Origin: Escherichia coli
GTDB taxonomy: Bacteria > Pseudomonadota > Gammaproteobacteria > Enterobacterales > Enterobacteriaceae
NCBI RefSeq assembly: GCF_036507355.1
Contig: NZ_AP027877.1
Reading direction: 5' to 3' (one strand)
DNA: 64,000 nucleotides
The notes beneath the pieces were generated by a model. That model did not search any database. It was not told the origin of the DNA and was given only the letters and a program-made list of their open reading frames with translations. This document shows positions 1 through 27,648 of the stretch, in pieces (positions within the stretch are counted from its first letter, which is position 1; each line of letters opens with the position of its first letter). A program made the position numbers and the translations under genes.

Positions 1-345
1 TGGCGAGAAAGCCGACTCCCGCGGCGAGAAATAAATATGGCGTCGGTCCGGTCAGCGCCTTTCCAGTTAGCACGTTCCAGGGTCCAGCGTTCCACAGCTT
101 CACGCTCATCAAAACGTAACGGGTGAACGGTAGAAAATCCGTTCTTCAGTCGGCGAATATTTATTCGACCTTCATTAAGGTCAAGATCCTGATAATGCAG
201 ATCAAGCAGTTCACTAATACGCATCCCATGCCGATATGCCAACAGAATAAGACAATAATCTCTGGCTCCCGTTGCCCCGTAACAAACCGCCTGCATCATG
301 GCCTGAACTTCTTTACCGGTAAGATAACGACGTTTACTCACAATA
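1..345 (-). CDS. fimE: Type 1 fimbriae switch recombinase FimE, N-terminal part (3' end lies beyond window start)
   Basis: Minus-strand translation from GTG at 345 gives VSKRRYLTGKEVQAMMQAVCYGATGARDYCLILLAYRHGMRISELLDLHYQDLDLNEGRINIRRLKNGFSTVHPLRFDEREAVERW..., matching FimE from memory; tyrosine-recombinase family. Confidence 0.85.
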
Positions 346-818
346 GTAGTACTCCTAACTGAGATATATTTGAATGAATACCTATAGGAAACCTCAATCG
401 GTCAAAATTAGCCCAATAGATAAAAAGATAACCACACACGAAGTGATGTGGCTATCAGTCAATTACATTAAATATCATACAAAAATAAAATATCACTGAT
501 GTGATAACATCTATTTTCATTGATTTGATTCAATATAACAATAGATTGCAGTGGATTAACTTCCAGTTGCTTAAAAAATAAAGGAAAAAGTGCAGAAACA
601 GGAGAGTTTAAGTGATGTGTAAATTTATGAATGATTTTGTTTATTTATTTTGAAGAACATAAACCATTGTATTTTGTATGGATATGGTTAACTTAATGTT
701 TATTATGATAATTAAGAATCATACTTACAATAACATCAATTAATAAATGGTTAATCATTTTTGATATATCGTAAGAATAATGTAGTTTTTAACACCATCC
801 CTGGTATCTCAACTATCT

Positions 819-1421
819 CTATAAAACAGCGTGACGCTGTCGTCCTCTGGCTCTATCCCAGATGCCGTAAAAACGCCCTGCATTGCTGGCGGTATACCAG
901 ACAGTATGACGAATATTGCGATGCCCAAGATAATCCTGGATAAGTCGCGTATCTATTCCCATATTCGCCAAAGCAAAACTACACGAATGGCGTAACATGT
1001 GCGGATGAATCTCCAGTGACAACCCGGCATTACCACCGGAAGTCGAGATAATATGGTAAAACTGTTGCCGAGAAAGCGGATTCCCCTTACGCGATAAAAA
1101 TACCCACTCGCTCTCAGCATGCGGGTACGAAGTACGGATACTCAACCAGTTTTTTAAAGCCTGAACTTCTTTATTCAATAGCGGGTGCGTTGTTGAAAAG
1201 ACTTTTTTTAATCGATGGATATATATACACTTTGCCTTAAGATCAATATCCGAAATCCTCAATCGACAAATTTCACTCGCCCGGAAACCATGAATAAAAC
1301 AAAGCAAAGTCAGACAATAATTACGTGCTGCATGAGGCCCGGTATTTGCTGCTTTAAGGAGTGATTCGATTTCACTATGGGTCAGGAAGTTCCTTTTTTT
1401 GTTATCAGCCTTATTCTTCAT
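819..1421 (-). CDS. fimB: Type 1 fimbriae switch recombinase FimB (tyrosine recombinase)
   Basis: ORF 819..1451(-); internal Met gives MKNKADNKKRNFLTHSEIESLLKAANTGPHAARNYCLTLLCFIHGFRASE... (200 aa), matching FimB; conserved HxxR and Y motifs near the C-terminus. Confidence 0.9.
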   Translation of the reverse strand: MKNKADNKKRNFLTHSEIESLLKAANTGPHAARNYCLTLLCFIHGFRASEICRLRISDIDLKAKCIYIHRLKKVFSTTHPLLNKEVQALKNWLSIRTSYPHAESEWVFLSRKGNPLSRQQFYHIISTSGGNAGLSLEIHPHMLRHSCSFALANMGIDTRLIQDYLGHRNIRHTVWYTASNAGRFYGIWDRARGRQRHAVL

Positions 1422-2436
1422 CGTTTTTCCCTTATAATTACAGACGCGCACTAGCTGTGCTGGGTTAGCAATAATCCAACATTTTTATCCTGATTATGTT
1501 TATAAAAGCGAACGTTTGCTTAATAACTAACGTAAGTGGACCAGTTCTTCTGAGTGAACTTAAATGGAGTAGCAACAGTTAATTATAATAACGTTGCCAT
1601 ACAAACGCCATGCTCTTGCATGCTATGTACCTTTATATATTTATCAATCGGATACGAATCTAATAATAACCCTCATCATTAATGCAACTAATCTTATCTA
1701 TATATCATGTGATATGTTCTGTAACAAGTAAAATCAACATAAAAAATTCAGCAAAATTTAATATTCGTTCAACTAGCCGTCTCACATATGACATTATTAG
1801 TCAACTCCATTTGCCACAAAATGGCTATTTCATGGAGCGCAGTAATTTCTTAGTGGCTATTATCATGCTAATTCTTAGGTCCCTAGCGATTATTCCTGGC
1901 TGATTCGTCAGCTTACGCCATGAGATTGTTACATTCATTTTTATCCTGGAGATATGGGGGAACGCAGGAGATGATTTTTTCATCTACATTCGTTGGTAAA
2001 TATAGCTTTGGTCACTACGACTTAAACCTTCCTCAATCACAGCCATTCGCCGGGCGATACGGCAAACAAACTAAGTGAAACATCATCCTGAAAACACCAA
2101 CATCAACAAGCCTCTCCAGATCGACTTCAGAAGTGACCAGTTACAAGCCACAAACCAAGAAACATATTTCATGATGAGAATTATGCTCAGCCTGATGGCG
2201 GGTAAACACTGATTTTCACCAAGCTCACGGAGTTAGCTTGCAAAGCTTTCCTTGTTTAGACTATAAATAAATTATTTATAAAACAAATAGTTAAACGAAG
2301 ATCTTTAGTTTTTGAAGACCACCGCAAGTGTTCGTCTGGCTTCACATGGCATCTTCCTCTTAGAAAAATATCGACATATTTTGTGACACGAATTGCAAAT
2401 CTGGTTTTGTTGTATGGATTGCGTGATTTTTGTTCT

Positions 2437-2459
2437 GGTATAACAGGTATAAAGGTGCA
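2437..2459. promoter_or_regulatory. Candidate NanR operator (GGTATA repeats) in the fimB-nanC intergenic region
   Basis: Sequence GGTATAACAGGTATAAAGGTGCA: two exact GGTATA hexamers and one degenerate copy at 9-bp spacing, the known NanR repeat pattern; sits in the ~1.45 kb spacer between divergent fimB and nanC. Confidence 0.5.
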
Positions 2460-2875
2460 CCAAGATAGTCAATGAGACAGGGCATCTTGCAATCTATGGC
2501 AAACATCACTTCAGTTCTTTCTCATCGGGTGATGAAAACGCACTTCAGTCTGAAAGGAATATGAAAATGAGATCAACAGACACTCTATTTTATGACTCCG
2601 GGTAAAATGGATTGAGTAAGTGATATAGCTTACGAACATTCAAATCAATTAAACATCAGAAGAGATTTTATACTCAGGTATTTAATCTGGATCTCTGTTT
2701 ATTTAAATAATGTGAAACGAGAATTTTCACAGGAGACCTTATACAAAAAATATAAAATACAGTTACCCGTTGCCAAAGACACTATAAGCCTGGCAAAAAA
2801 TATTACACAACATAAATGCTAATTGTTTATGCGGGCTTTGTATTGCTTTCTGTATCCTACAAATGAGTGAAATTT

Positions 2876-3592
2876 ATGAAAAAGGCTAAAATACTTTCTG
2901 GCGTATTATTACTGTGCTTTTCGTCCCCATTAATTTCTCAGGCTGCGACACTGGACGTACGTGGTGGATATCGTAGTGGAAGCCACGCCTATGAGACTCG
3001 ACTCAAAGTCAGTGAGGGATGGCAAAATGGATGGTGGGCAAGCATGGAAAGTAATACCTGGAATACCATTCATGATAATAAAAAGGAAAATGCCGCACTC
3101 AATGATGTTCAGGTTGAAGTTAATTACGCGATTAAACTTGATGATCAATGGACGGTGCGCCCGGGAATGTTAACGCATTTTAGCAGCAACGGCACACGCT
3201 ACGGACCCTACGTAAAACTGTCCTGGGACGCGACAAAAGATCTTAATTTTGGCATTCGCTATCGTTACGACTGGAAAGCTTACCGACAACAAGACTTATC
3301 TGGTGATATGTCTCGTGATAACGTTCATCGTTGGGATGGATATGTCACTTACCATATTAATAGTGATTTCACCTTCGCATGGCAAACGACGCTATACAGT
3401 AAACAGAACGATTATCGCTATGCAAACCATAAGAAATGGGCGACGGAAAATGCATTTGTTCTACAATACCATATGACGCCCGATATTACGCCATACATAG
3501 AATATGACTACCTTGACCGTCAGGGTGTTTACAACGGCAGAGATAATTTATCGGAAAACAGTTATCGCATTGGTGTGTCATTTAAACTGTAG
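2876..3592 (+). CDS. nanC: N-acetylneuraminic acid outer-membrane channel (KdgM family porin)
   Basis: ORF 2867..3592(+); MKKAKILSGVLLLCFSSPLISQA signal peptide then beta-barrel-like alternating sequence; matches NanC/YjhA from memory. Confidence 0.85.
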   Translation: MKKAKILSGVLLLCFSSPLISQAATLDVRGGYRSGSHAYETRLKVSEGWQNGWWASMESNTWNTIHDNKKENAALNDVQVEVNYAIKLDDQWTVRPGMLTHFSSNGTRYGPYVKLSWDATKDLNFGIRYRYDWKAYRQQDLSGDMSRDNVHRWDGYVTYHINSDFTFAWQTTLYSKQNDYRYANHKKWATENAFVLQYHMTPDITPYIEYDYLDRQGVYNGRDNLSENSYRIGVSFKL

Positions 3593-3611
3593 TAGACAGG
3601 AGACAGTCACA

Positions 3612-4718
3612 ATGAATAAAACAATAACGGCGCTTACTATCATAATGGCTTCATTTGCCGCAAACGCGTCTGTATTACCGGAAACTCCTGTGCCATTTAA
3701 AAGTGGTACCGGAGCAATTGATAACGACACTGTCTACATTGGTTTAGGTAGCGCAGGTACGGCATGGTACAAGCTGGATACACAGGCCAAAGATAAAAGA
3801 TGGACAGCGTTAGCTGCATTCCCTGGCGGACCGAGAGATCAAGCAACCTCTGCATTTATTGATGGCAATCTGTATGTGTTTGGCGGCATTGGCAAAAACA
3901 GCGAGGGCTTGACTCAGGTATTTAATGACGTACACAAATACAACCCCAAAACCAATAGCTGGGTTAAATTGATGTCGCACGCGCCGATGGGCATGGCGGG
4001 CCATGTGACTTTTGTACACAACGGCAAGGCTTATGTTACTGGCGGTGTTAACCAGAATATCTTCAATGGCTATTTTGAAGATCTCAACGAAGCTGGAAAA
4101 GATTCAACCGCTATAGATAAAATCAACGCCTACTATTTTGACAAAAAAGCAGAAGATTATTTCTTCAATAAGTTTCTGTTGTCTTTTGATCCCTCAACAC
4201 AGCAATGGAGTTACGCTGGCGAATCTCCCTGGTACGGAACGGCTGGTGCGGCGGTTGTGAATAAAGGTGATAAAACCTGGCTTATTAATGGCGAAGCCAA
4301 ACCAGGATTGCGAACGGATGCCGTATTTGAACTTGACTTCACCGGTGATAATTTAAAATGGAATAAGCTTGATCCCGTCTCATCACCAGATGGCGTCGCT
4401 GGCGGTTTTGCGGGGATAAGCAATGATTCTCTTATATTTGCTGGAGGGGCCGGATTCAAAGGTTCACGAGAAAATTACCAGAACGGTAAGAACTATGCGC
4501 ATGAAGGCCTGAAAAAATCATATAGCGCTGATATTCATCTTTGGTATAACGGGAAATGGGATAAATCGGGTGAATTATCGCAAGGTCGGGCCTACGGAGT
4601 ATCATTGCCCTGGAATAATAGTTTATTAATTATTGGCGGTGAAACTGCAGGCGGCAAAGCAGTGATGGATTCAGTTTTAATTTCTGTGAAGGATAATAAA
4701 GTCACAGTACAAAACTAA
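3612..4718 (+). CDS. nanM: N-acetylneuraminate mutarotase (Kelch-repeat beta-propeller), periplasmic
   Basis: ORF 3504..4718(+); internal start MNKTITALTIIMASFAANA (signal peptide), repeated GG/Kelch-like motifs (VFGGIG, YVTGGVN, FAGGAGF, LIIGGE); RBS AGGAGA upstream. Confidence 0.85.
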   Translation: MNKTITALTIIMASFAANASVLPETPVPFKSGTGAIDNDTVYIGLGSAGTAWYKLDTQAKDKRWTALAAFPGGPRDQATSAFIDGNLYVFGGIGKNSEGLTQVFNDVHKYNPKTNSWVKLMSHAPMGMAGHVTFVHNGKAYVTGGVNQNIFNGYFEDLNEAGKDSTAIDKINAYYFDKKAEDYFFNKFLLSFDPSTQQWSYAGESPWYGTAGAAVVNKGDKTWLINGEAKPGLRTDAVFELDFTGDNLKWNKLDPVSSPDGVAGGFAGISNDSLIFAGGAGFKGSRENYQNGKNYAHEGLKKSYSADIHLWYNGKWDKSGELSQGRAYGVSLPWNNSLLIIGGETAGGKAVMDSVLISVKDNKVTVQN

Positions 4719-5763: not shown

Positions 5764-5770
5764 GCGTTCA

Positions 5771-6025
5771 TTAATTTGATTTATTCGCATCCATCAGCGC
5801 TTTTAACTGCTCCGGCGTAAACGGTGGTTTGCGTCGGTGCAACATCGCATGGCAATTAGGGTACACAGGCAGCAAATCATTAACTGGATCCAGCTGGTAA
5901 TCCTCTTTAATGGCTGACAGCGGCACCAGGTGATGCACATGGATAAAGCCTTCAGCGATATCACCATAGATCTTCACCAGATCAACACCGCATATTCCGT
6001 ATGAACCATACGGAGATTTAACCAT
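5771..6025 (-). CDS. Short HNH-motif protein, possibly a C-terminal remnant of a larger HNH nuclease gene
   Basis: 84-aa translation contains HVHHLVP...N...NCHAMLH (HNH-like His/Asn/His spacing) but lacks a clear first CxxC pair; AT-rich; its start overlaps the start of the divergent HUH gene. Confidence 0.4.
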   Translation of the reverse strand: MVKSPYGSYGICGVDLVKIYGDIAEGFIHVHHLVPLSAIKEDYQLDPVNDLLPVYPNCHAMLHRRKPPFTPEQLKALMDANKSN

Positions 6026-6593
6026 GACCTACAAATACAACCCCTTCTGGCAGCAACGTATTCGTGAGACGGTGCGGCACGCACTGAATGTTCATCCCCG
6101 CCTGACGGCATTGCGGGTTGACCTGCGTCTCCCGGATGTACCGGCAGCAACGGACGCAGCTGTGATATCCCGCTTCATCAATGCCCTGAAAGCCCGAATC
6201 GACGCTTACCAGAAACGTAAGCATCGGGAAGGTAAACGCGTGCATCCCACAACCCTGCATTACGTCTGGGCCCGGGAGTTTGGGGAGTGCAAAGGTAAAA
6301 AACACTATCACCTGATGCTGCTGGTCAACCGGGATACCTGGTGTCGTGCCGGTGATTACCGCGCTCCGGAGTCTCTGGCCGGGATGATTAAACAGGCGTG
6401 GTGCAGTGCCCTGGGAGTGGATGTCGGGTGCCATGCCACGCTGGTGCATTTTCCGGCCTGGCCGGCGGTGTGGCTGGCGCGTAATGATGACACCGGCTTT
6501 CAGCAAGTGCTGGAACGTGCTGACTATCTGGCGAAGGAGTATACCAAAGCTCACTGCACCGGTGAGCGCAATTTTGGCTGTAGCCGGAGTTGA
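6024..6593 (+). CDS. YagK/YfjJ-like (inovirus Gp2-type) protein with HUH-like motif, probable rolling-circle Rep-type nuclease
   Basis: 189-aa ORF; KKHYHLMLLV resembles an HUH motif (His-hydrophobic-His-hydrophobics); resembles YfjJ/YagK proteins of CP4-type cryptic prophages from memory. Confidence 0.55.
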   Translation: MTYKYNPFWQQRIRETVRHALNVHPRLTALRVDLRLPDVPAATDAAVISRFINALKARIDAYQKRKHREGKRVHPTTLHYVWAREFGECKGKKHYHLMLLVNRDTWCRAGDYRAPESLAGMIKQAWCSALGVDVGCHATLVHFPAWPAVWLARNDDTGFQQVLERADYLAKEYTKAHCTGERNFGCSRS

Positions 6594-6846
6594 GCACGAC
6601 TGGCGCGCCAATATCCGGCAAACCAAAAGTATGGGTTGTTGTCTGGCGGCAACGATGTATCCACTCGCCCACTGACTGTTTTTTACGTCAGTGTTCCATT
6701 GTGTGACAACCACAGTGCTGTAACAGCAACCAGCCTGCTTTACCCAAACTCCAGTCCAGATTTTAACTGAACCGCCATTCACACCCTGACCACGCTGCCC
6801 GTACCGGGACGGCTGTTGCCTGCGTGTCGTCTGGCGGCTAAGGAAT

Positions 6847-7254
6847 ATGACTATGTACGCAAAATCCTTTATCGCTCTTGATGGCAACGGACGTCTGACG
6901 GGCGCCCGTACTGCACAGGCCGCACCTTATGCTCACTACACCTGCCACTTGTGTGGCAGTGCACTCAGATACCATCCGCAATACGACACTGAACTTCCCT
7001 GGTTTGAACACACTGACGACAGGCTGACAGAGCACGGTCAACAGTGCCCTTATGTCAGGCCGGAGCGCAGAGAAATACAGTTGATTAAACGTCTGCAGCA
7101 ATTCGTACCGGATGCCTTACCCGTGGTGCGTAAAGCCAGCTGGCACTGCAGACAATGTCACCACGATTATTATGGGGAGCAGTACTGCACACACTGCCAG
7201 ACCGGAGGATTCAGTATTCCCCGGACAACTCAGGAGGAAATATGCGAATTCTGA
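6847..7254 (+). CDS. Cys-rich zinc-ribbon protein, paralog 1
   Basis: 135-aa ORF with CHLCG...PWFEH...WHCRQC...YCTHCQTG; same architecture as the next gene. Confidence 0.5.
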   Translation: MTMYAKSFIALDGNGRLTGARTAQAAPYAHYTCHLCGSALRYHPQYDTELPWFEHTDDRLTEHGQQCPYVRPERREIQLIKRLQQFVPDALPVVRKASWHCRQCHHDYYGEQYCTHCQTGGFSIPRTTQEEICEF

Positions 7255-7676
7255 ACTGTTATATGGCGAATGACAGCAAAGGCCATTTTGTTACGGCGAA
7301 AGAAGCTGCGAAGCACAACCGACAGGACGTTTTGTGCTGTGTGTCCTGTGGATGCCCGTTAACACTTCAGCGGGGCAATGACGGACAACCACCGTGGTTT
7401 GAACATGACCAGATGACTGTCGCTGAAAAAATCCTGCTGCGATGTACCTGGCTTGACCCGGCGGAGAAAGAGGCCCGTCGTTTGCATCTGCAGGGCATGA
7501 CGGTTCCGGATTATACGGTGAAGGTGAGAAAGTGGTTTTGTGTGATGTGTGACGAAGATTATGAGGGGGAAAAGTGCTGCCCACGCTGCGGTACCGGGGT
7601 ATACAGCAGGGCGTGGGGGCGGCAGGAGGTGCCGTCGGAAGATGCCAGGGCTGATAATCCGTTACAGAGGCTGTAA
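7242..7676 (+). CDS. Cys-rich zinc-ribbon protein, paralog 2
   Basis: Start ATG at 7242 preceded by GGAGG RBS and overlapping the last codons of paralog 1; CCVSCG...PWFEH...FCVMC...CCPRCGTG. Confidence 0.5.
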   Translation: MRILNCYMANDSKGHFVTAKEAAKHNRQDVLCCVSCGCPLTLQRGNDGQPPWFEHDQMTVAEKILLRCTWLDPAEKEARRLHLQGMTVPDYTVKVRKWFCVMCDEDYEGEKCCPRCGTGVYSRAWGRQEVPSEDARADNPLQRL

Positions 7677-8009
7677 TGGTTGCCTCCGGAGCAGTTTGCG
7701 GTGATGCCTTTCCCGGGAATGGATTGCCAGTGCGGGGACTGTGGAGCTTAATTCCGGTGTTGGTGGCCTTTCCGTTGATTTTATGCCAACAGCCCCCTGT
7801 GACTGACAGGCTGCCTCGTCATTCCATTCGTATCTCCAGTAACAGGGGGTTGTATTGTATTTTATTGTGCCGGTTCAGGTGTGCGTTTCCCGGCGCGTCT
7901 GCACCGGCTTAACCAAATTCAACAGGGATAAAATAGTGGTAAGCGTACAGCCTGAACCGTCTGGTCAGAATCTGACGAATTAGACAAAGTGGTGTCCACC
8001 AAATAAGTA

Positions 8010-8411
8010 GTGGGAACCAAAGTGTCAGATATGCAGAAAAATGTGACTCCCGGCAGGCGAAAAGGCTGCCCTAATTATCCTCCCGAATTTAAACAGCTGC
8101 TCGTTGCTGCCTCCTGTGAACCCGGGATATCCATCTCAAAACTTGCTCTTGAAAATGGCATTAACGCCAATCTGTTGTTCAAATGGCGACAACAATGGCG
8201 CGAGGGAAAGCTGCTATTACCTTCTTCAGAGAGCCCCCAGCTACTTCCTGTGACTCTCGATGCAGCTGCCGAACAGCCAGAATCGCTCGCAGAGGACCCG
8301 GAAACCCTCAGTATCAGCTGTGAGGTAACGTTCCGGCACGGGACGCTCCGCTTCAATGGCAATGTCAGCGAAAAGCTCCTGACTCTGCTGATACAGGAAC
8401 TGAAGCGATGA
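8010..8411 (+). CDS. IS66-family accessory protein (orfA / TnpA-like)
   Basis: 133-aa ORF with HTH-like N-terminus (ISKLALENGINANLLFKWRQQW), typical of IS66 orfA. Confidence 0.7.
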   Translation: MGTKVSDMQKNVTPGRRKGCPNYPPEFKQLLVAASCEPGISISKLALENGINANLLFKWRQQWREGKLLLPSSESPQLLPVTLDAAAEQPESLAEDPETLSISCEVTFRHGTLRFNGNVSEKLLTLLIQELKR

Positions 8412-8755
8412 TCCCGTTACCTTCCGGGACCAAAATTTGGCTGGTTGCCGGTATCACCGATATGAGAAATGGCTTCAACGGCCTGGCTGCGAAAGTACAA
8501 ACGGCGCTGAAAGACGATCCCATGTCCGGCCATGTTTTCATTTTCCGGGGCCGCAGCGGCAGTCAGGTTAAACTGCTGTGGTCCACCGGTGACGGACTGT
8601 GCCTCCTGACCAAACGGCTGGAGCGTGGGCGCTTCGCCTGGCCGTCAGCCCGTGATGGCAAAGTGTTCCTTACGCAGGCGCAGCTGGCGATGCTGCTGGA
8701 AGGTATCGACTGGCGACAGCCCAAGCGGCTGCTGACCTCCCTGACCATGCTGTAA
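8408..8755 (+). CDS. IS66-family orfB (TnpB-like)
   Basis: 115-aa ORF; MIPLPSGTKIWLVAGITDMRNGFNGLAA... is the IS66 Orf2 signature; start overlaps the orfA stop (ATGA). Confidence 0.75.
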   Translation: MIPLPSGTKIWLVAGITDMRNGFNGLAAKVQTALKDDPMSGHVFIFRGRSGSQVKLLWSTGDGLCLLTKRLERGRFAWPSARDGKVFLTQAQLAMLLEGIDWRQPKRLLTSLTML

Positions 8756-8804
8756 ATCTCTTTATCCTGGTTGTCACAGAATAAGCCCGGTAAAATACGG
8801 GCTT

Positions 8805-10190
8805 ATGAACGACATCTCTTCTGACGACATCTTCCTGCTAAAACAGCGCCTGGCCGAACAGGAAGCGCTGATCCACGCCCTGCAGGAAAAGCTGAGCAAC
8901 CGGGAGCGCGAAATAGACCATCTGCAGGCGCAGCTGGATAAACTCCGCCGGATGAACTTCGGCAGTCGTTCCGAAAAAGTCTCCCGCCGTATCGCACAAA
9001 TGGAAGCCGATCTGAACCGGCTTCAGAAAGAGAGCGATACGCTGACTGGTAGGGTGTATGACCCGGCAGTACAGCGTCCGTTGCGTCAGACCCGCACCCG
9101 TAAGCCGTTCCCTGAATCACTACCCCGTGACGAAAAGCGACTGTTGCCTGCGGCGCCGTGCTGCCCGAACTGCGGCGGTTCACTGAGCTATCTGGGCGAG
9201 GATACCGCCGAACAGCTGGAGTTGATGCGTAGCGCCTTCCGGGTTATCCGGACGGTACGGGAAAAACATGCCTGTACTCAGTGCGATGCCATCGTGCAGG
9301 CACCTGCACCTTCGCGGCCCATCGAGCGGGGTATCGCCGGACCGGGGCTGCTGGCCCGCGTGCTGACCTCGAAGTATGCAGAGCACACCCCGCTGTATTG
9401 CCAGTCAGAAATATACGGCCGGCAAGGTGTGGAGCTGAGCCGTTCACTGCTGTCGGGCTGGGTGGATGCATGCTGCCGGCTGCTGTCTCCGCTGGAAGAG
9501 GCGCTTCATGGCTATGTCATGACTGACGGCAAACTCCATGCCGATGATACCCCGGTCCAGGTACTGCTGCCGGGTAATAAGAAGACGAAGACCGGGCGGT
9601 TGTGGGCGTATGTTCGTGATGACCGCAATGCCGGGTCAGCGTTGGCACCTGCAGTGTGGTTCGCTTACAGCCCGGACAGAAAAGGCATCCATCCGCAGAC
9701 TCATCTTGCTTGCTTCAGCGGTGTGCTGCAAGCGGATGCGTACGCCGGGTTCAACGAGCTGTATCGCAATGGTGGGATAACGGAAGCTGCCTGCTGGGCT
9801 CATGCCCGCCGAAAGATCCACGATGTGCACGTCCGCATCCCGTCAGCACTGACGGAAGAAGCCCTAGAGCAGATCGGTCAGTTGTACGCCATAGAGGCGG
9901 ATATAAGGGGAATGCCGGCAGAGCAGCGGCTTGCTGAACGTCAGCGAAAAACGAAACCGCTGTTGAAATCCCTGGAAAGCTGGTTGCGTGAAAAGATGAA
10001 GACCCTGTTCTTCGGCTCTGGCCATGGTGGTGAGCGGGGAGCGCTACTGTACAGCCTGATCGGGACGTGCAAACTGAATGACGTGGATCCAGAAAGCTAC
10101 CTTCGCCATGTGCCTGGCGTCATAGCAGACTGGCCGGTCAACCGGGTCAGCGAACTGCTTCCGTGGCGCATAGCACTGCCAGCTGAATAA
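8805..10190 (+). CDS. IS66-family transposase (orfC / TnpC), probably carrying an internal in-frame deletion
   Basis: 461-aa ORF with leucine-zipper N-terminus, CxxC...CxxC zinc motif and DDE region; about 50 aa shorter than typical IS66 TnpC, with the conserved region before LFFGS.GGERGA apparently missing. Confidence 0.7.
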   Translation: MNDISSDDIFLLKQRLAEQEALIHALQEKLSNREREIDHLQAQLDKLRRMNFGSRSEKVSRRIAQMEADLNRLQKESDTLTGRVYDPAVQRPLRQTRTRKPFPESLPRDEKRLLPAAPCCPNCGGSLSYLGEDTAEQLELMRSAFRVIRTVREKHACTQCDAIVQAPAPSRPIERGIAGPGLLARVLTSKYAEHTPLYCQSEIYGRQGVELSRSLLSGWVDACCRLLSPLEEALHGYVMTDGKLHADDTPVQVLLPGNKKTKTGRLWAYVRDDRNAGSALAPAVWFAYSPDRKGIHPQTHLACFSGVLQADAYAGFNELYRNGGITEAACWAHARRKIHDVHVRIPSALTEEALEQIGQLYAIEADIRGMPAEQRLAERQRKTKPLLKSLESWLREKMKTLFFGSGHGGERGALLYSLIGTCKLNDVDPESYLRHVPGVIADWPVNRVSELLPWRIALPAE

Positions 10191-10428
10191 CACATCCCCG
10201 TCAATACGGCCCTCGCTGTACGCTTACTTTTGTTCGGACTGCTTATGGCCTTTTTCCACTGGTGTAGCAGGAAAGTTAACCGGCTGCCACCATGAGATGA
10301 CGTGTAAACCGTGCAGGCATGTTTTCACGTGGTGACGCTTTCATTGGGGGTCTACGCCGGAACCCCAATATTGTTCACATACATGAATTTGAAAAACTAA
10401 GCGATACTGCTGTCCGTACCTTATAAAC

Positions 10429-11787
10429 TTATTTCAACGCTTCCGGCAGCGTCACAATCCACAGTTCACTGTCAGACTCCGGTTTCTCCAGTGGCTTCAC
10501 TCTGAGGGTCGTTTCAACCTGCTTGTCGTCAAGCGTCAGCTTTCCTTCCGCGTTCACCCGATAATCCTTGAATGTCTTGCCCTCGACCGGATGTTGCATC
10601 GCCACCTTCACGCCAAAGTCGTTATCGTTCGCCACCGCCAGCGTTTTGCTGTCGATCAGCGCCAACCCTTCAGCCTTCTCCTGCTGCCAGCCCAAGGAGC
10701 GCAGATCAACAACCTGCGTTTTCTGCGCAAGGGTAATGCCGCGCTGTGACAGGGTTTTCTCATCATCAAACTCCGGATACTCACCCGGCTTGTCGAAGCC
10801 TGACAGGTCGCTCGCCTTATTGAGATCGACCTCGTAAATCAGGTTACGCATTCTGTTGTTTTTATCTCTTCCCTGTTCGATCAGCAGGATGTGCTGGTTA
10901 TCGAGCGCCACGATGTCTCCGATTTTAGCGTCGCTGTTTTTGCTGTAGGCCGCGCTGTCGATAGGATAACCGTACATCGCGGTTTTTCCGCTTGCCGGAT
11001 CGAAGCTCACCAGACGCGTAAACAGCGCCTTTTTCTTGCTCTTAGCGTCGATATCCAGCGTACTTTGCACGGCGACAATAATACGCCCGTCCGGCATACG
11101 GGTGAGGCCTTCAAAGCCGCGGTTCGCCTGACGCCATTTGAGGATATTTGGCAAACCGCCCGCAATCGCTTTTTCCCCTTCCGCCGCCTGCGGACCGTGG
11201 ATTGCCAGGATTTTCCCTTTACTGTCGATGTTAATCAGGAACGGGCCATACTCATCGCACAGCCAGTAACCTCCTTTACCATCCGGAGTGATCCCTTCCG
11301 TATCCAGCCCGCGATTATCCCCCTTCAGTCTATGTAACGTGTCGCTGAAGGCCACTTCATTGGTGGAGCCAATCACGTCGCTTGCCAGCGGCAGACCGTT
11401 GATCGCGCCTTTATCGTCATGCAGAGGACGGGGATCGATGGCCTCCGCTTTGCCGTTTTGTACACGAATCGTCATCAGCAGCGGCGCGAAATCTGGCGTA
11501 ACGAAAATTTTAGTTTCGTTTTTCCCCTCTTTCGGTGAATCCGCGTTCGGACCGCGATCGGTAATGGTTGCGAATGTCAGGGCATCGCCCTGTTTACCGG
11601 TGAACAGCAGGCCAGAACCTATCCCAACCGGAAGGCCGTTCGGGAATGCACTGGCAAATGCGCCGGCGTAGTTCACGTGCGTGCCTTCTGGAAAACTGAC
11701 GACATAGCGCTCAGCCGTAGGTTGTGCCGCCAGGGCAGAGAAAGAGAGCGTACAACCGATTAGCACGGGAATAATTTTTCTTTTCAT
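10429..11787 (-). CDS. Secreted phytase-like / esterase-like beta-propeller protein
   Basis: ORF 10429..11802(-); signal peptide MKRKIIPVLIGCTLSFSALAAQP; sequence resembles 'esterase-like activity of phytase' family proteins from memory; no catalytic motif verified. Confidence 0.45.
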   Translation of the reverse strand: MKRKIIPVLIGCTLSFSALAAQPTAERYVVSFPEGTHVNYAGAFASAFPNGLPVGIGSGLLFTGKQGDALTFATITDRGPNADSPKEGKNETKIFVTPDFAPLLMTIRVQNGKAEAIDPRPLHDDKGAINGLPLASDVIGSTNEVAFSDTLHRLKGDNRGLDTEGITPDGKGGYWLCDEYGPFLINIDSKGKILAIHGPQAAEGEKAIAGGLPNILKWRQANRGFEGLTRMPDGRIIVAVQSTLDIDAKSKKKALFTRLVSFDPASGKTAMYGYPIDSAAYSKNSDAKIGDIVALDNQHILLIEQGRDKNNRMRNLIYEVDLNKASDLSGFDKPGEYPEFDDEKTLSQRGITLAQKTQVVDLRSLGWQQEKAEGLALIDSKTLAVANDNDFGVKVAMQHPVEGKTFKDYRVNAEGKLTLDDKQVETTLRVKPLEKPESDSELWIVTLPEALK

Positions 11788-12059
11788 ATTGTTAGCATCC
11801 ATAAAGTGAAGATCACACTACACCATAAAGAAGAAACGAGTCAGGAAAATGACATCGAATGGCAACATGCGCGGGCCTGAGGCCAAAGAAATGTAAAACA
11901 CTGTTGTTATTTGTAACAACGGAAACATTTACGGAAATTATTTGTCTTTCTTCGTGATCAAAAATGCTGTGTCTTGTTGGATTGGAGTGATGAGGGCTGC
12001 GTTTAGGAAACGCCCTATATTGTACGGTTGCATTATCGCGGTAGGGGTAATGCACGTGT

Positions 12060-12200
12060 CAGTATGATGAGCTGACCACACTCACGTGGGTGGACTGGTA
12101 TAACAATCGACGATTGCTGGAAAGGCAGGGCCATATCCCACCGGCAGAAGCAGAAAAAGCTTATTATGCTTCCATCGGAAACGATGATCTGGCAGCCTGA
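12060..12200 (+). pseudogene. IS3-family transposase C-terminal remnant
   Basis: Translates to ...QYDELTTLTWVDWYNNRRLLERQGHIPPAEAEKAYYASIGNDDLAA*, the typical C-terminal tail of IS3-family OrfB; the upstream part of the gene is absent. Confidence 0.4.
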
Positions 12201-12298
12201 GTTCACAGATAAAACACTCTCCAGGAAACCCGGGGCGGTTCACTTAGCCGCGTGTCCATTATTGCTGGATAAGATCATAACGAGGTAATGACTCCAAC

Positions 12299-12802
12299 TT
12301 ATTGATAGTGTTTTATGTTCAGATAATGCCCGATGACTTTGTCATGCAGCTCCACCGATTTTGAGAACGACAGCGACTTCCGTCCCAGCCGTGCCAGGTG
12401 CTGCCTCAGATTCAGGTTATGCCGCTCAATTCGCTGCGTATATCGCTTGCTGATTACGTGCAGCTTTCCCTTCAGGCGGGATTCATACAGCGGCCAGCCA
12501 TCCGTCATCCATATCACCACGTCAAAGGGTGACAGCAGGCTCATAAGACGCCCCAGCGTCGCCATCGTGCGTTCACCGAATACGTGCGCAACAACCGTCT
12601 TCCGGAGCCTGTCATACGCGTAAAACAGCCAGCGCTGGCGCGATTTAGCCCCGACATAGCCCCACTGTTCGTCCATTTCCGCGCAGACGATGACGTCACT
12701 GCCCGGCTGTATGCGCGAGGTTACCGACTGCGGCCTGAGTTTTTTAAGTGACGTAAAATCGTGTTGAGGCCAACGCCCATAATGCGGGCTGTTGCCCGGC
12801 AT
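12299..12802 (-). CDS. insB: IS1 InsB (expressed as InsAB' by -1 frameshift)
   Basis: Translation ...[74 protein letters not shown]... matches IS1 InsB. Confidence 0.85.
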
Positions 12803-12996
12803 CCAACGCCATTCATGGCCATATCAATGATTTTCTGGTGCGTACCGGGTTGAGAAGCGGTGTAAGTGAACTGCAGTTGCCATGTTTTACGACAGTGAGA
12901 GCAGAGATAGCGCTGATGTCCGGCGGTGCTTTTGCCGTTACGCACCACCCCGTCAGTAGCTGAACAGGAGGGACAGCTGATAGAAACAGAAGCCAC
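12721..12996 (-). CDS. insA: IS1 InsA
   Basis: [43 protein letters not shown]... identical in character to IS1 InsA. Confidence 0.85.
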
Positions 12997-13065
12997 TGGA
13001 GCACCTCAAAAACACCATCATACACTAAATCAGTAAGTTGGCAGCATCACCGGCCTCGCATTTAA

Positions 13066-13911
13066 TTATTCATTTAAAGATTCAAGAAATGTCCAGCCTT
13101 TATGAGTAACATAATACATTTGTCCTTTTGCCCCTCTTTCAATCACAAAATCAAAGGATAACAGTTCGTTAAGTGCGCCCTCCCAACGGGCTACCTCTCT
13201 AGCCGAACTTCCACCAAAGGATTGATTTCCCGCTTGAATATCCGTGCCACCTAAATGCCTTATCACATAAATTGTTCCGCTATCATCGACACATGCCAAT
13301 TTCAGCAAACTGAGTGCATCGGCGGACAAATTACTTTCTGGCAAAGATTGACTTGTATTCGCATCAGGAGAATTGTTAATGGTAGATATAAGAGAAGACA
13401 AATAAGGGCTACTAGAAATAATTATCGAAAGTTGCCTACGGACTTTGTCTTTGAAATCAGATAAGTCATTAAAAGACTCTATCAATCCCTTTTGCATGCA
13501 CTCAATTTTGAACAATTTAAGAGACTCATATTGTTCTCTATCAAGGCTTTCAGGGGCAACAGGCTTTGAGGAAAAGTAAATCATTGCCGGTTTTCCCGCA
13601 TTCAAATGACGGTGAATTTCTTCGACTGTTCCGCTGGCCTCGTTCCCAGTCGGTGAGCCTAGACGAGTCCAAAACACACCGATTAATAAATCACAATCTA
13701 CTAATAATCTTTGATTAATCAACTCCTGAGGCCTAACTCCTAATTCGGGTGATGTATGAGTTTCCCATCCAATTGGTGTCAACATTACTTTTGAACGAGC
13801 TGAATTTATATCATTCCACTCATGGATCATTTCACGAATGACTTGTCTCTCTTCAGCGACATCACCAGGAGAAGCAATCATTACAGGGATAACAGTTGCT
13901 GTGTAAGCCAT
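13066..13911 (-). CDS. Hypothetical protein with N-terminal DUF4062-like (TIR/STIR-like) domain and uncharacterised C-terminal domain
   Basis: 281-aa AT-rich ORF with GGAGAG RBS; N-terminus VMIASPGDVAEERQVIREMI...CDLLIGVFWTRLGSPTG...SGTVEEIHRHLNAGKPAMIYFSS fits the DUF4062 pattern as I recall it; start lies 14 nt after the recombinase stop; IS1 ends 14 bp past its stop. Confidence 0.5.
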   Translation of the reverse strand: MAYTATVIPVMIASPGDVAEERQVIREMIHEWNDINSARSKVMLTPIGWETHTSPELGVRPQELINQRLLVDCDLLIGVFWTRLGSPTGNEASGTVEEIHRHLNAGKPAMIYFSSKPVAPESLDREQYESLKLFKIECMQKGLIESFNDLSDFKDKVRRQLSIIISSSPYLSSLISTINNSPDANTSQSLPESNLSADALSLLKLACVDDSGTIYVIRHLGGTDIQAGNQSFGGSSAREVARWEGALNELLSFDFVIERGAKGQMYYVTHKGWTFLESLNE

Positions 13912-13924
13912 AAACTCTCCATAT

Positions 13925-14485
13925 TCAATCGGTAATAGCTGCTACAGTCGCTCTTGAAACGCCATATTGACGCGCTAACGCACTGATACTCAAACCGCTA
14001 TTCTTTTTCTCTAAAATCTCTCTACGGGCTTCTGACGCGATTTTAGGAGGTCTGCCCAATTTCTTACCTTCGGCTTTTGCTCGTGATAGTCCCGCCTGAG
14101 TGCGCTCAATCAGCAGATCACGCTCCATCTCCGCAACCGCGGCGAGCATAGATAATAGCAACTTCCCAGCGGCAGAAGTGAGATCTGTGTTACCAAGCTG
14201 GTGGACAAGAACCTTGATATTACGGTCAGCCAGCGCCCTTACCGTTTGCAGGACGTCAATCGCATCACGCCCCAGACGATCAAGCTTCGCTACCACCAAC
14301 GTTTCACCATCGCGGATTTTATTGAGCATTTCAGAAAATGCTTTACGTTGCATTGCCGGAACCTTCCCGCTAACAACATCGGCAAACCAGTAATCAATTT
14401 GCCACCCAGCCTGCCCAAGCTCCAGCCGTTGGTTCTCAGTATCCTGCTGCGATGTCGAAACACGTCCGTAGCCAAAAGTTGCCAT
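13925..14485 (-). CDS. Small serine recombinase (resolvase/invertase family)
   Basis: ORF 13925..14554(-); true start likely MATFGYGRVSTSQQDTENQ (catalytic Ser motif GYxRVSTxxQ) with GGGGAG RBS; C-terminal HTH SISALARQYGVSRATV; about 186 aa. Confidence 0.75.
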   Translation of the reverse strand: MATFGYGRVSTSQQDTENQRLELGQAGWQIDYWFADVVSGKVPAMQRKAFSEMLNKIRDGETLVVAKLDRLGRDAIDVLQTVRALADRNIKVLVHQLGNTDLTSAAGKLLLSMLAAVAEMERDLLIERTQAGLSRAKAEGKKLGRPPKIASEARREILEKKNSGLSISALARQYGVSRATVAAITD

Positions 14486-14507
14486 TGTTATCTCCCCATC
14501 TGACCCC

Positions 14508-14604
14508 TGCCAGAAAACGAGGCCAACATTAGGATGGCCTGCCAGAAAAGCCAAGGCTATTTTTCCAACAGTGTGAAAGCGTGCGATTGGGAGGTGCCAG
14601 AAAA
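14508..14604. repeat. Three direct copies of TGCCAGAAAA upstream of the serine recombinase start; candidate res-like binding sites/operator
   Basis: TGCCAGAAAA at 14508-14517, 14540-14549 and 14595-14604 (spacings 32 and 55 bp), 23-120 bp upstream of the recombinase start codon. Confidence 0.4.
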
Positions 14605-15460
14605 CGGTCGATTGATGACACCATCAAACACTAACAGTGTGCCCCGGCAACGCGCGCCTGCAACGGTTGTCTCGGATGAGCAAAATCTTAGGGTTTTCTC
14701 AGCGACCCCTGACGCGCGGGCACGCACATGCTCACGGGGGCGCGGGCGAGCTATACAGTTGAGGGAGGGGCAACCATAAGCGTGCAATTTTTCAAGCCGG
14801 GGATTCAGCTATAGGCTAACGGTAGAATGCGGCTTGTAGAGGGTTGTGCGCACATACCCAGTACAATCGCATTACTCCACGCGCACAAACCCCGGAGAGC
14901 CGCTTGCGGTGGGGGTTTAAGAGGTACAATTTTTGGTTCGGGTCATAAAGGACTTTTGAGAGCTGACTTAGCTTATTTAAACTGCATTCGTCTTGGCTAT
15001 GGAGACACGAGGCAGCTCAAGTTTTGTTCAAAACTTTGCAATATTTTGGTTCGATCTCATGTTCTCGTGCTAAAGAAATCAGCACTCGATCAAATTTTCA
15101 TTTTTTTTCTGAAACATTGACATACAGCCTAAGCCTTAAGGCACGTAGGGTTGGTCGAAATTTCCCTTTGACAACCTCAATTTAACCTCAAAATCAACCC
15201 TTGTACTGCAAAGAATCCTAACTAGAATGCTGAACATGTAGGGGGGAATCTTATTAACACACCCTATATGTTGTGCTCATGTATAAATGATGGGCATAAA
15301 AAAACCGGAGTCACCTGCGTGAATCCGGTCTATGAAGCATGACCGCCATGAGTCTGCAAACTCATAACGATTGTTAGCCTCACTATCGTTTCTAACGGCT
15401 CGATTGTGCCCGGCTTGGTTGGTTATGTAAACAGTAAGATAAAATCAAAAGGAACGATCC

Positions 15461-16375
15461 ATGCTTATTCAGAAAAAGCGTATTCGAAATATTGATAATT
15501 ACATACCTAACTTTGATGGCCGTGATATCTACATTGCACATTCTTTGCCAGATGCGGGGAAAACGGACTCTATTGGTTTCTCAAGTCAAAGAGCTTTAGG
15601 TGAAGAAGTCCTCCCCAAGATTTTAGGGCCAATAACCAGATTCAATGCTAATGGCAAATCAGTACCTGACAAAACAGCACCTAAAGAAACTGCATACAGA
15701 CAAATTTCATGGACTAGAAAGCAATGGATCGGAGGGGGCGCAACTCAAGAAGTTACTGACACTCGTGAAATTGAGTATAAGCGCTACAAGAGAATCCTCA
15801 CCCCTCCACCAAGCATAGAGTTAAAGATTGTAGAGAATCTTCAAGGGGAGAAGTTGATCATCTCTCCAAAGCTAAGTTTGACAGCTAACAACAAAGAGTT
15901 AGTGGCTCACTGCATTAATCTTTTTTTAGAGCTTTTTGGGTTGTGCGAAACTGTTGACGACCAACTTAATACCATCGTTAAAAGTAAATCTATAAAACTA
16001 AACTGGAGCCTCCTGCCTCAGGGTCAACAGCCTTGGAGTACTATCGGTTCAAAAATCCTTTCAGCTATTAAGATCAGGGGAAAGGGCAATACCGCTGTTG
16101 TTGAAGGCAGACTTGAACTTATCAATAGTAAAAAACCAGATTTCGTAGCGGTTGGGCAAGCTGGGTTCCAAGGCTACGTGATATTTGGGTTCACAGGCCA
16201 AAACATTTACGTGCTAGAAAGCTCACAATGTAATAACGCAACTTATATACTTAACAATAATTGGCAGCAGTTATCCCAGCTAACTAAAGCCGAAATACTA
16301 GACGGAAACTTGCACCATGCCCGTGTCATCCACCGTGTAAACTGGGCAGCAGAAATACTTAAATACTTACCATAA
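15461..16375 (+). CDS. Hypothetical protein (304 aa), AT-rich orphan gene adjacent to leuX
   Basis: Uninterrupted 304-aa ORF with RBS AAAGGAA upstream; strongly AT-biased codon usage; no motif I can assign; ends ~510 bp from the tRNA 3' end. Confidence 0.5.
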   Translation: MLIQKKRIRNIDNYIPNFDGRDIYIAHSLPDAGKTDSIGFSSQRALGEEVLPKILGPITRFNANGKSVPDKTAPKETAYRQISWTRKQWIGGGATQEVTDTREIEYKRYKRILTPPPSIELKIVENLQGEKLIISPKLSLTANNKELVAHCINLFLELFGLCETVDDQLNTIVKSKSIKLNWSLLPQGQQPWSTIGSKILSAIKIRGKGNTAVVEGRLELINSKKPDFVAVGQAGFQGYVIFGFTGQNIYVLESSQCNNATYILNNNWQQLSQLTKAEILDGNLHHARVIHRVNWAAEILKYLP

Positions 16376-16888
16376 AGCGCCGGACGCGCGGGAATGAACC
16401 CCCGCGCACTTTCAAACATACCGCAATAGAATCCATAAAGCCCCGTTGGTGGTAAGACAACAAGCGGAGCCTCTGGCGACTACATCACAGTTATGTCAGT
16501 TAGTGAGGCTTATCAGGATGACCATGTACCCAAGGGGAGCGAGGCCGAACCGCTGGCAGAGCTTGCATATGGTCTGCAAGTACCGTGACCACCATAAACC
16601 TGTTTATCCCCTGCGGCGTCTCGCGACAGCGGCAGAACGGGGGCATCGGGCTAAAATGCGCTTCACTAAAAGTTTTTGGGATTGTTTAGAGACAGTGGCT
16701 ACGTCATAGCTTTCAAGTTGAGTCAGTACGTGTTTGACGCTTGGAACTACACGCCGCTATGAGTTAACATCCCAATTACCACTATCAACCACAGCGGCTT
16801 TTTCAAGGGACATAACAGAGCATTTCTTACAGGCAAAAGAGACAGATTTTATTGTCTAACTACCTGTATTGTAAGGAATTTAGTGACT

Positions 16889-16973
16889 TGGTGCCGAAGG
16901 CCGGACTCGAACCGGCACGTATTTCTACGGTTGATTTTGAATCAACTGCGTCTACCGATTTCGCCACTTCGGC
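16889..16973 (-). tRNA. leuX: tRNA-Leu (CAA anticodon)
   Basis: Reverse complement reads GCCGAAGTGGCGAAATCGGTAGACGCAGTTGATTCAAAATCAACCGTAGAAATACGTGCCGGTTCGAGTCCGGCCTTCGGCACCA: 85 nt, long variable arm, CAA anticodon loop, 3' CCA. Confidence 0.9.
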
Positions 16974-19870: not shown

Positions 19871-19980
19871 GCCTACACCACTGCAATATATTGGATTTTC
19901 ATGATTTTTCAGGCATGAACGAAGCACACTTTGCTAACAATAATAAAGGGAGCTTTCGCTCCCTTTATTCGTTCATTCGG

Positions 19981-21063
19981 TTACGATTTTCTCATTAACA
20001 GCCACAGGCTGATTAAGAAGAAGCTGGCGCTTGGCAACAGTGCGCCGATGATCGGCGGGATGCCATAAACCAACGTCAGCGGGCCGAAGATCTGGTCCAG
20101 TACATAGAAGACAAAACCGAAGCTGATACCGGTGACCACACGCACACCCATCGGTACGCTACGCAGTGGGCCAAAGATGAACGACAGCGCCATCAGCATC
20201 ATCACCGCCACGGATAGCGGCTGGAAGATTTTGCTCCACATGTTGAGCTGATAACGTCCGGCATCCTGACCGCTCGATTTCAGATACTTCACATAGTTGT
20301 GCAAACCGCTGATAGAGAGTGCATCCGGATCCAGCGCCACCACGCCCAGTTTGTCAGGCGTGAGGTTGGTTTTCCAGGTGCCGCTCACCGTCTGCGAACC
20401 GGTGATCTGTTTCGGATTGGTCAGATCAGATTCATCAATCTGCGACAGACGCCAGACTTTATGTTCCGGGTCAAACTTCGCGGTAGCGGCATAGCGTACG
20501 GATTGCAGACGACGATTCTCGTTAAAGGCATAAATACTGATGCCACCTAACTCTTCGTCACCTTTAACCCGCTCAATGTAGACGAAGTTGTTGCCATCTT
20601 TCGCCCATAAACCTTGCTGGGTAGAGAGCAACGAGCCGCCGTACATCGCCTGCGCACGGTAGTTACGCGCCATCTGCTCGCCCTGCGGCGCGACCCATTC
20701 GCCAATCGCCATCGTCAGCAAGACCAGCGGAATGGCGGTTTTCATCACCGACAGCGCCACCTGCATACGGGTAAAACCAGAAGCCTGCATCACCACCAGT
20801 TCGCTGCGCTGCGCCAGCATCCCAAGACCAAGCAACGCCCCAAGCAAAGCCGCCATCGGGAAGAATATTTGCACATCTTTCGGCACGCTCAGCAAGGTAT
20901 ACATTCCTGCGCCTAACGCGTCGTAGCTCCCCTGCCCGGCTTTTTTCAACTGATCGACAAATTTGATAATGCCCGACAGCGACACCAGCATGAACAGCGT
21001 CATCATGATGGTGGTGAAAATAGTTTTACCGATATAGCGGTCAAGTACGCCAAAAGGTTGCAT
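19981..21063 (-). CDS. lptG: LPS export ABC transporter permease LptG
   Basis: Translation MQPFGVLDRYIGKTIFTTIMMTLFMLVSLSGIIKFVDQLKKAGQG... matches LptG; 1-nt overlap with the lptF stop. Confidence 0.9.
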   Translation of the reverse strand: MQPFGVLDRYIGKTIFTTIMMTLFMLVSLSGIIKFVDQLKKAGQGSYDALGAGMYTLLSVPKDVQIFFPMAALLGALLGLGMLAQRSELVVMQASGFTRMQVALSVMKTAIPLVLLTMAIGEWVAPQGEQMARNYRAQAMYGGSLLSTQQGLWAKDGNNFVYIERVKGDEELGGISIYAFNENRRLQSVRYAATAKFDPEHKVWRLSQIDESDLTNPKQITGSQTVSGTWKTNLTPDKLGVVALDPDALSISGLHNYVKYLKSSGQDAGRYQLNMWSKIFQPLSVAVMMLMALSFIFGPLRSVPMGVRVVTGISFGFVFYVLDQIFGPLTLVYGIPPIIGALLPSASFFLISLWLLMRKS

Positions 21064-22163: not shown

Positions 22164-22426
22164 TTTAAATACGCCCGTAAAAACTCGTCTTTTGCAGGAT
22201 TTTAGCTTGTTTCATGGCTTAAACGTCATTTATTCTCTTGAGTCGTCGAAATCGTCGCTAAGATAATTATACTCAACGGATTCACCTCTCAGATTTTGTT
22301 CTGACGTGCCAATGCCGTAATAACGTTAAGATTAACACGAAGTCATCGCAACAGCGGACATGAGTTACGAAAGCTTGCAATTCTATCTGTAGCCACCGCC
22401 GTTGTCTTTAAGATTCAGGAGCGTAG

Positions 22427-24290
<1,864 letters not shown>

Positions 24291-24296
24291 CCATTT

Positions 24297-27595: not shown

Positions 27596-27615
27596 TCAAC
27601 ACCGTGATGAAAACG

Positions 27616-27644
27616 AAGGCCGGAGCATGCTCCGGCCTTTTTTA
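27616..27644. terminator. Bidirectional rho-independent terminator between valS and yjgN
   Basis: AAGGCCGGAGCATGCTCCGGCCTTTTTTAT: perfect GC-rich hairpin followed by a T-run. Confidence 0.65.
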
Positions 27645-27648
27645 TCTC

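Follow-up and report, generated by a model that had tools for sequence, protein, structure and literature searches.

The spacer of about 1.45 kb that separates fimB, a fimbrial switch gene, from the divergent nanC, which encodes a sialic-acid porin, in the 64,000-nucleotide stretch of Escherichia coli DNA analysed here (contig NZ_AP027877.1; hereafter the window) is almost certainly the shared, non-coding control region of fimB and the nanCMS operon, arranged as in E. coli K-12. An initial annotation, made from the letters of the sequence, had described this spacer as unusually long and AT-rich, had pointed out GGTATA repeats of NanR type within it, and had assigned it to the known control of fimB by sialic acid and N-acetylglucosamine (GlcNAc). 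All of these points are upheld, the last by orthology with K-12, by the position of the NanR box and by the recovery of the spacer as a NanR target in genomic SELEX. We judge the spacer to be the already known K-12 fimB–nanC control region, as it occurs in a further strain of E. coli. Those defining features of the K-12 archetype that were testable all appear present or consistent in the window, the accessory Dam sites excepted.

Both start codons bounding the spacer were located, which fixes its length (Table 1). Its G+C content is 36.0%, against 50.4% for the whole window, whose longest run free of ORFs of 100 aa or more is formed by positions 1452–2866, the runner-up being 906 bp. The first gene of the window is a partial fimE on the minus strand, ahead of fimB. 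The gene order fimE–fimB, spacer, nanC–nanM–nanS is the same in MG1655 (K-12), whose counterpart spacer (NC_000913, 4539502–4540956) measures 1455 bp and shares the flanking genes and their orientation. A full-length alignment of the two spacers, 1456 columns long, contains 19 substitutions and three single-base indels (98.5% identity). None of these differences falls in the NanR box, the SlyA and H-NS sites, the fimB promoter, the 271-nt leader or either NagC candidate. No gene or RNA is annotated inside the fimB–nanC spacer of MG1655. Among 5426 complete E. coli genomes, 5086 carry the spacer (5020 match at least 80% of it), and the annotation beneath it is almost always empty. The lptFG–pepA–valS segment of the window is 99.4% identical to the nearest of these 5426 genomes, and the FimB variant encoded here corresponds to WP_338387865.1, which is known from a single contig; the source lineage of the window is, as judged from these comparisons, rare and poorly sampled.

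Table 1. Features of the fimB–nanC region, with coordinates in the window and identity to the divergent Escherichia strain E69.
Feature	Position	Strand	Details
fimB CDS	819–1421	−	200 aa; G74V and G148S relative to K-12
fimB–nanC spacer	1422–2875		1454 bp, from fimB ATG at 1421 (−) to nanC ATG at 2876 (+)
fimB 5′ untranslated leader	1422–1692	−	271 nt
Shine–Dalgarno AAGGGA in leader	1428–1433	−	exact match, PMC3911127
ops-like element TGGCGTTTGTAT in leader	1599–1610	−	exact match, PMC3911127
SphI site in leader	1618–1623	−	exact match, PMC3911127
73-codon ORF	1682–1903	+	antisense across fimB promoter and SlyA/H-NS sites; judged non-coding
fimB sigma-70 promoter	1699–1727	−	−35 TTGTTA 1722–1727, 17-bp spacer, −10 TATATA 1699–1704, start A1692
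H-NS2 site, overlapping SlyA operators	1857–1866	−	exact match, PMC3173223
SlyA operator O_SA1	1860–1871	−	exact match, PMC3173223
SlyA operator O_SA2	1875–1886	−	exact match, PMC3173223
H-NS3 site, overlapping SlyA operators	1886–1895	−	exact match, PMC3173223
Variable central spacer	1897–2371		most polymorphic part in E. coli; 57–65% identical to E69; encloses NagC2 island
E69 identity, central segment	1975–2161		118/206 (57%)
Candidate NagC operator O_NC2	2162–2184	−	CATAATTCTCATCATGAAATATG; TT-N9-AAA geometry; −492 to −470 from fimB start
E69 identity, NagC2 candidate	2162–2184		22/23 (96%)
E69 identity, between NagC candidates	2185–2366		119/183 (65%)
A+T tract with one-mismatch IHF consensus matches	2262–2293		about midway between NagC candidates; polymorphic; candidate by position only
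E69 identity, NagC1 to NanR	2367–2460		91/94 (97%)
TATC replacing GATC	2369–2372		next to NagC1 candidate
Candidate NagC operator O_NC1	2375–2400 (approx.)	−	TGCAATTCGTGTCACAAAATATG; adjoins NanR box
GTTC replacing GATC	2432–2435		1 bp from NanR box; private A-to-T at 2433
NanR operator	2437–2460	+	GGTATA-ACA-GGTATA-AAG-GGTGCA; two exact repeats and a degenerate third
nanC-proximal spacer	2461–2875	+	putative nanC leader and promoter region
E69 identity, downstream of NanR box	2461–2515		33/55 (60%)
E69 identity, nanC-proximal	2516–2875		312/363 (86%)
nanC CDS	2876–3592	+	238 aa, KdgM-family porin; nanM and nanS next

The sequence GGTATAACAGGTATAAAGG was found on the plus strand at 2437–2455, where the repeats had been annotated, and has no second copy in the window when up to three mismatches are tolerated; shuffled sequences give 0.01 matches; the same interval is also the only mismatch-free tandem GGTATA-N3-GGTATA of the window. 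The third repeat (GGTGCA, 2455–2460) matches GGTATA at four of six positions; with the two exact repeats it makes up an operator that is identical at K-12 nanC and invariant in 66 distinct E. coli spacer haplotypes collected from complete genomes, NCBI assemblies and metagenome contigs. Together the three repeats follow a 9-bp period, as in the operator of NanR (GntR-type). It could be argued that A+T-rich DNA throws up such repeats by chance, with no NanR connection, given that the window contains 26 copies of GGTATA by itself and that tandem versions with two mismatches appear at chance frequency. We give this explanation next to no credence: the exact 19-mer, for which only 0.01 occurrences were expected, corresponds in position to the operator of the orthologous K-12 spacer, is near-invariant in the 66 haplotypes, recurs in the nan operators of about 90 species and lies in a spacer that was recovered by SELEX.

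That the repeats belong to NanR, as annotated, is borne out by the following evidence. Firstly, the box lies at −763 to −745 from the fimB transcription start (1692), in agreement with published distances upstream of that start of around 760 bp for a NanR operator and 470 bp for a NagC site (McVicker 2011, PMC3173223). Secondly, genomic SELEX identified the nanC/fimB spacer as the NanR target that is still bound with Neu5Ac present (PMC5934670). Thirdly, when one genome per bacterial species was scanned, the exact 19-mer GGTATAACAGGTATAAAGG turned up in 91 stretches, nearly all of them upstream of nan genes in Enterobacterales; in about 90 species representatives of this order, nan operators are built around it. 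NanR operators consist of GGTATA repeats in nanATEK-yhcH, yjhBC and nanCMS (Horne et al. 2021, PMC8012715), and the box at 2437–2460 doubles as the operator from which nanCMS is controlled (PMC8012715). The overlapping sequence TGGTATAAC at 2436–2444 is readable as an extended −10 element, which would make it a putative part of the nanC promoter.

On the fimB side, the comparison with published maps of the regulatory region gave exact placements for the leader, the −35 and −10 boxes, both SlyA operators and two H-NS sites (Table 1). The SlyA operators were reported as TTAGCATGATAA (−179 to −168) and CTAGGGACCTAA (McVicker et al. 2011, PMC3173223). With O_SA1 at −179 to −168 the fimB start falls at 1692, and a start at 1692 makes the leader exactly 271 nt long, which is the length reported by Moores et al. 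2014 (PMC3911127). The −35 and −10 boxes were derived from this leader length combined with the endpoint of a deletion from −277, described in the same work as “immediately adjacent to the -10” (PMC3911127), and the ApaLI site at −1033 of that study is matched in the window as well. The arrangement that characterizes the K-12 archetype, with SlyA operators, H-NS2 and H-NS3 (−194 to −167), a sigma-70 promoter and a 271-nt leader, was therefore found in full. Within 1672–1746, the 66 haplotypes show four variable positions, with a mean minor-allele frequency of at most 0.004.

The operator positions used for comparison were those given in secondary statements of McVicker 2011 (PMC3173223) and Moores 2014 (PMC3911127), and the position of the O_NC2 candidate fits the phrase “around 470 bp upstream” of the former (PMC3173223). 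A motif scan of the spacer for NagC and IHF yielded two NagC-like candidates and, for IHF, one-mismatch matches only. The O_NC2 candidate is invariant in the 66 haplotypes, with polymorphic flanks, and the O_NC1 candidate is near-invariant in them; both fit the TT-N9-AAA geometry, and they lie about 213 bp apart, centre to centre. Sohanpal et al. (2007) reportedly described two NagC sites 212 bp apart, with IHF midway between them. The exact IHF consensus WATCAANNNNTTR was absent from the spacer in the consensus scan, and the only CRP-like match there, at 2382–2397 with two mismatches, lies inside the O_NC1 candidate; the CRP and IHF scans produced weak matches only. NagC and IHF are accordingly placed here as candidates, on grounds of position, motif geometry and conservation.

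Sequence variation within and beyond E. coli follows the same map. Polymorphism among the 66 haplotypes is low at 1422–1896, which includes the fimB leader, the promoter and the SlyA/H-NS sites, is greatest in the central part of the spacer, and almost disappears at 2372–2446, the block that joins NagC1 to NanR. Alignment of the divergent Escherichia strain E69 (locus L023) to positions 1975–3008 gave an uneven profile of identity (Table 1). When the haplotypes and E69 are considered together, constraint coincides with the published operator placements, and this shows selective conservation of the operator islands. As a by-product, the comparison singles out just two islands of strong constraint in the distal half, the NagC1–NanR block and the NagC2 site. 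One metagenome contig, in which the spacer is fused to nanA at the Nan box, was rejected as an assembly chimera at 1.1x coverage that arose via the shared operator.

Read in the light of K-12, for which published work has established the mechanism, the region would work as follows. NanR dimers on the GGTATA repeats would repress nanCMS until N-acetylneuraminate weakens their binding. NanR at its box and NagC at its two operators would activate the sigma-70 promoter of fimB from about 470–760 bp away, so that in the presence of sialic acid or GlcNAc there would be less FimB, less switching from OFF to ON and less type 1 fimbriation. H-NS would silence the fimB promoter across the A+T-rich DNA, with SlyA at 1860–1886 relieving the silencing, and the 271-nt leader would serve as a target of post-transcriptional control by MicA. 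For the window strain, we infer protein binding, the promoter of nanC and the exact extents of the sites for NagC and IHF from the sequence and its K-12 counterpart. A region of this kind ties host amino sugars, which are a signal of inflammation, to the decision on type 1 fimbriae.

Recognizing the spacer for what it is averts spurious gene calls in a long “empty” interval and leaves the known picture unchanged. The small ORF at 1682–1903 had been annotated as most likely non-coding, and the presence of a real protein or small RNA gene would have spoken against the annotation; both were looked for. The ORF, at 73 aa, is as long as expected by chance: dinucleotide shuffles of the spacer have a mean longest ORF of 73.3 aa, and 44% of them reach 73. 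Its length differs among strains (73, 88, 105, 114, 131 or 135 aa) through stop and frameshift polymorphisms, and K-12, which alone is without one G at 1898, has an ORF of 88 aa as against 73 aa in the window. No Shine–Dalgarno sequence was found ahead of the ORF, whose ATG lies ten bases within the fimB-transcribed region on the opposite strand. A Pfam search with its translation gave no significant match (best E = 0.25), and its homologues are E. coli sequences only, with none outside. Over the first 72 codons, which are free of indels, the ratio of synonymous to non-synonymous changes is 5:8, not different from neutral and no better than in other frames.

These results bear on the idea that a protein gene, intact or lately decayed, lies in the spacer on the strand of nanC and has been cut down to 73 aa in the window. 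Such a gene could find some backing in the longer alleles: 27 of 67 haplotypes have a form of 131–135 aa, the 131-aa form exceeds 98.9% of the shuffles of that allele (1.1% reach its length), a 12-bp insertion in one strain preserves the frame, and a few annotations list a “hypothetical protein”. The significance of the 131-aa form is inflated, however, by the choice of the longest ORF among many alleles, and the segment 1900–1975 is read in two frames that differ by strain. A 195–199-aa spacer protein, represented in databases by clusters of more than 1000 members, was rejected because in-frame TGA stops had been read as W. The neutral substitution ratio, the lack of a Pfam family, of relatives beyond E. 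coli and of a Shine–Dalgarno sequence, and the start codon inside the opposing fimB transcript all weigh against a gene, and the ORF is left uncalled in MG1655 and in nearly all PGAP annotations. A protein gene is consequently regarded as highly improbable. The ORF at 1682–1903 failed every coding test and is judged to be a chance, non-coding ORF within the fimB–nanCMS control region, in agreement with the initial annotation.

The other kind of gene that might occupy the spacer is an unannotated small RNA or antisense transcript with a share in the control, located for instance in the variable centre or opposite the leader of fimB. Room for it could be seen in the length of the spacer and in those parts of its nanC-proximal half that are well conserved (86% identity to E69) but have no assigned site, and a promoter-like match of 10/12 is present on the minus strand at 2749–2776. 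Yet an Rfam scan of 300–3800 with E values up to 1 gave no match, and neither the fimB leader (z = −0.67) nor the nanC-proximal 436 nt (z = −0.58) folds in an unusual way relative to shuffles, so that neither a covariance match to a known RNA family nor folding below shuffles was detected. Promoter-like matches in the spacer number four, fewer than the 6.2 in shuffles; this count passes over the real fimB promoter, because the scan demands a T at the last position of the −10 box. The sole terminator-like site lies within the fimB leader. Moreover, no RNA is annotated in the spacer of MG1655, although small RNAs such as FimR2 are annotated nearby. An RNA gene is therefore considered very unlikely, and a control region free of genes is the reading retained for the spacer.

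The window departs from K-12 in its Dam methylation sites. The K-12 spacer has six GATC sites and that of the window four, the sites beside NanR and NagC1 being absent (Table 1). On the NagC1 side, the TATC allele is common, occurring in 12 of the 66 haplotypes and in strain E69, and for this side we therefore rejected the idea that the two Dam sites were lost in concert or under selection; an 81-mer test had been misleading here owing to linked SNPs. On the NanR side, the 81-mer of the window with GTTC was found in none of 5048 complete genomes, all 22 assemblies sampled irrespective of allele carried GATC and none GTTC, and an exact-pattern scan of metagenome contigs matched the GATC version 97 times and the GTTC version not at all. 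The NagC1-side site is dispensable in nature; the NanR-side site is essentially fixed in E. coli and lost only in the window strain. A selected loss on the NanR side is weakened as an explanation by the rarity of the lineage, whose core genes are 99.4% identical to the nearest genome and in which private SNPs are expected everywhere: in a poorly sampled lineage, a single private SNP in a 4-bp target is no evidence of selection. Other genera carry GTTCT, GGTCT and further variants ahead of the same NanR box, which indicates that the operator as such can do without GATC. The GTTC at 2432–2435 is a new but minor detail.

The NanR-adjacent GATC sites at nanA, nanC and yjhB change their methylation with growth phase, and methylation of a freed GATC has been hypothesised to hinder the re-binding of NanR (Westphal et al. 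2016, PMC5155068, citing Chu 2008). K-12 nanC is one of the three sites in that case of competition between Dam and a regulator at GATC (PMC5155068), whereas the window has no GATC there and its locus is therefore unable to join the methylation-dependent behaviour; as both Dam sites are absent, methylation-linked behaviour cannot be assumed for the window strain. It is conceivable, albeit unlikely, that the control region is methylation-blind in this lineage and, provided that methylation does hinder NanR, shows faster re-repression of nanCMS and re-activation of fimB after sialic acid depletion. If this were true, the window strain would be a natural test of the methylation/NanR hypothesis. 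Among known operators, that of nanATEK-yhcH ((GGTATA)3), which has been the subject of structural work (PMC8012715), is closely similar, sharing the core GGTATAACAGGTATAAAGG, the TCT ahead of the first repeat and usually the GATC. The two types differ in the third repeat, which is an exact GGTATA at nanA-type sites (TATA after the 19-mer) and GGTGCA at nanC, and in their reach: the nanA site acts as a repressor site of its own promoter only, whereas the nanC box is also credited with the distant activation of fimB.

At the NanR box (GGTATA repeats, 2437-2460), the window reads GTTC at 2432-2435 where K-12 has a Dam site, GATC, abutting the box, the change being A-to-T at 2433. The GTTC allele occurred in none of 5048 complete E. 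coli genomes and in none of 22 assemblies picked blind to that allele, and a metagenome scan gave 0 matches for the GTTC form versus 97 for the GATC form. The GATC adjoining the NagC1 candidate (~2375-2400) is replaced as well, by TATC at 2369-2372; that this allele is unique was considered and dropped, because it is carried by 12 of the 66 haplotypes (distinct E. coli spacer alleles) and by the divergent Escherichia strain E69. It is common and old, and its seeming rarity in an 81-mer search is due to linked SNPs.

Between the NagC2 candidate (2162-2184) and the IHF tract (2262-2293) lies a SlyA-like candidate, which agrees with the SlyA consensus TTAGCAAGCTAA at more positions than the published operator O_SA1 does (10/12) and is absent from the description by McVicker 2011 (PMC3173223). 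The surrounding block, GGAGTTAGCTTG, is kept in strain E69, and the candidate varies at 2236 within E. coli. The nanC-proximal 360 bp of the spacer (2516-2875) show 86% identity to E69, versus 57-65% for the spacer centre. On the fimB side, the sole terminator-like match within the spacer is a short hairpin sharing bases with two elements studied by Moores et al. (PMC3911127), the ops-like element and the SphI site.

Coordinates of features in the spacer and elsewhere in the window
Feature	Position	Strand	Remark
Hairpin CATGCAAGAGCATG, then GCGTTTGTAT	1609-1622	minus	terminator-like, in fimB leader
SlyA-like candidate TTTGCAAGCTAA	2233-2244	minus	11/12 match to SlyA consensus
leuX, tRNA-Leu(CAA)	16889-16973	minus	
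Ysr276, antisense to pepA	22988-23182		Rfam
naRNA4/REP-type elements, four	24016-24189, 51018-51095, 57268-57346		Rfam
Magnesium riboswitch (mgtA leader)	40727-40842		Rfam

In metagenome contig ERZ504680 NODE_5832, the fimB-side part of the spacer is joined to nanA, with the junction precisely at the Nan box; at a coverage of 1.1x, this contig is most likely chimeric, misassembled across the operator that both loci share. The spacer ORF appears in the protein database as clusters of 195-199 aa (L104:149-736 and L105:186-773, two outside loci), one of them with 1076 members, and these were rejected as gene calls reading an in-frame TGA as tryptophan.

Compared with the allele common to K-12 and most strains, FimB (819-1421) carries G74V and G148S, and G148 belongs to the tyrosine recombinase's HxLRHS-C-G motif region. 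An identical protein, WP_338387865.1, is on record for one contig. No close match to the window was found among complete RefSeq E. coli: agreement for 1-25000 is 98.2% at 92% coverage, and the core genes lptF-lptG-pepA-holC-valS (19900-28900) reach 99.4% against the same genomes. The E. coli lineage behind the window is therefore one that has been sparsely sampled.

Outside the spacer, the Rfam matches are at gathering-score level. An ~11-kb island (5764-16973) lies between nanS and leuX, with HNH/ScoMcrA-like restriction genes directly past nanS; in its place, K-12 has the KpLE2 element.
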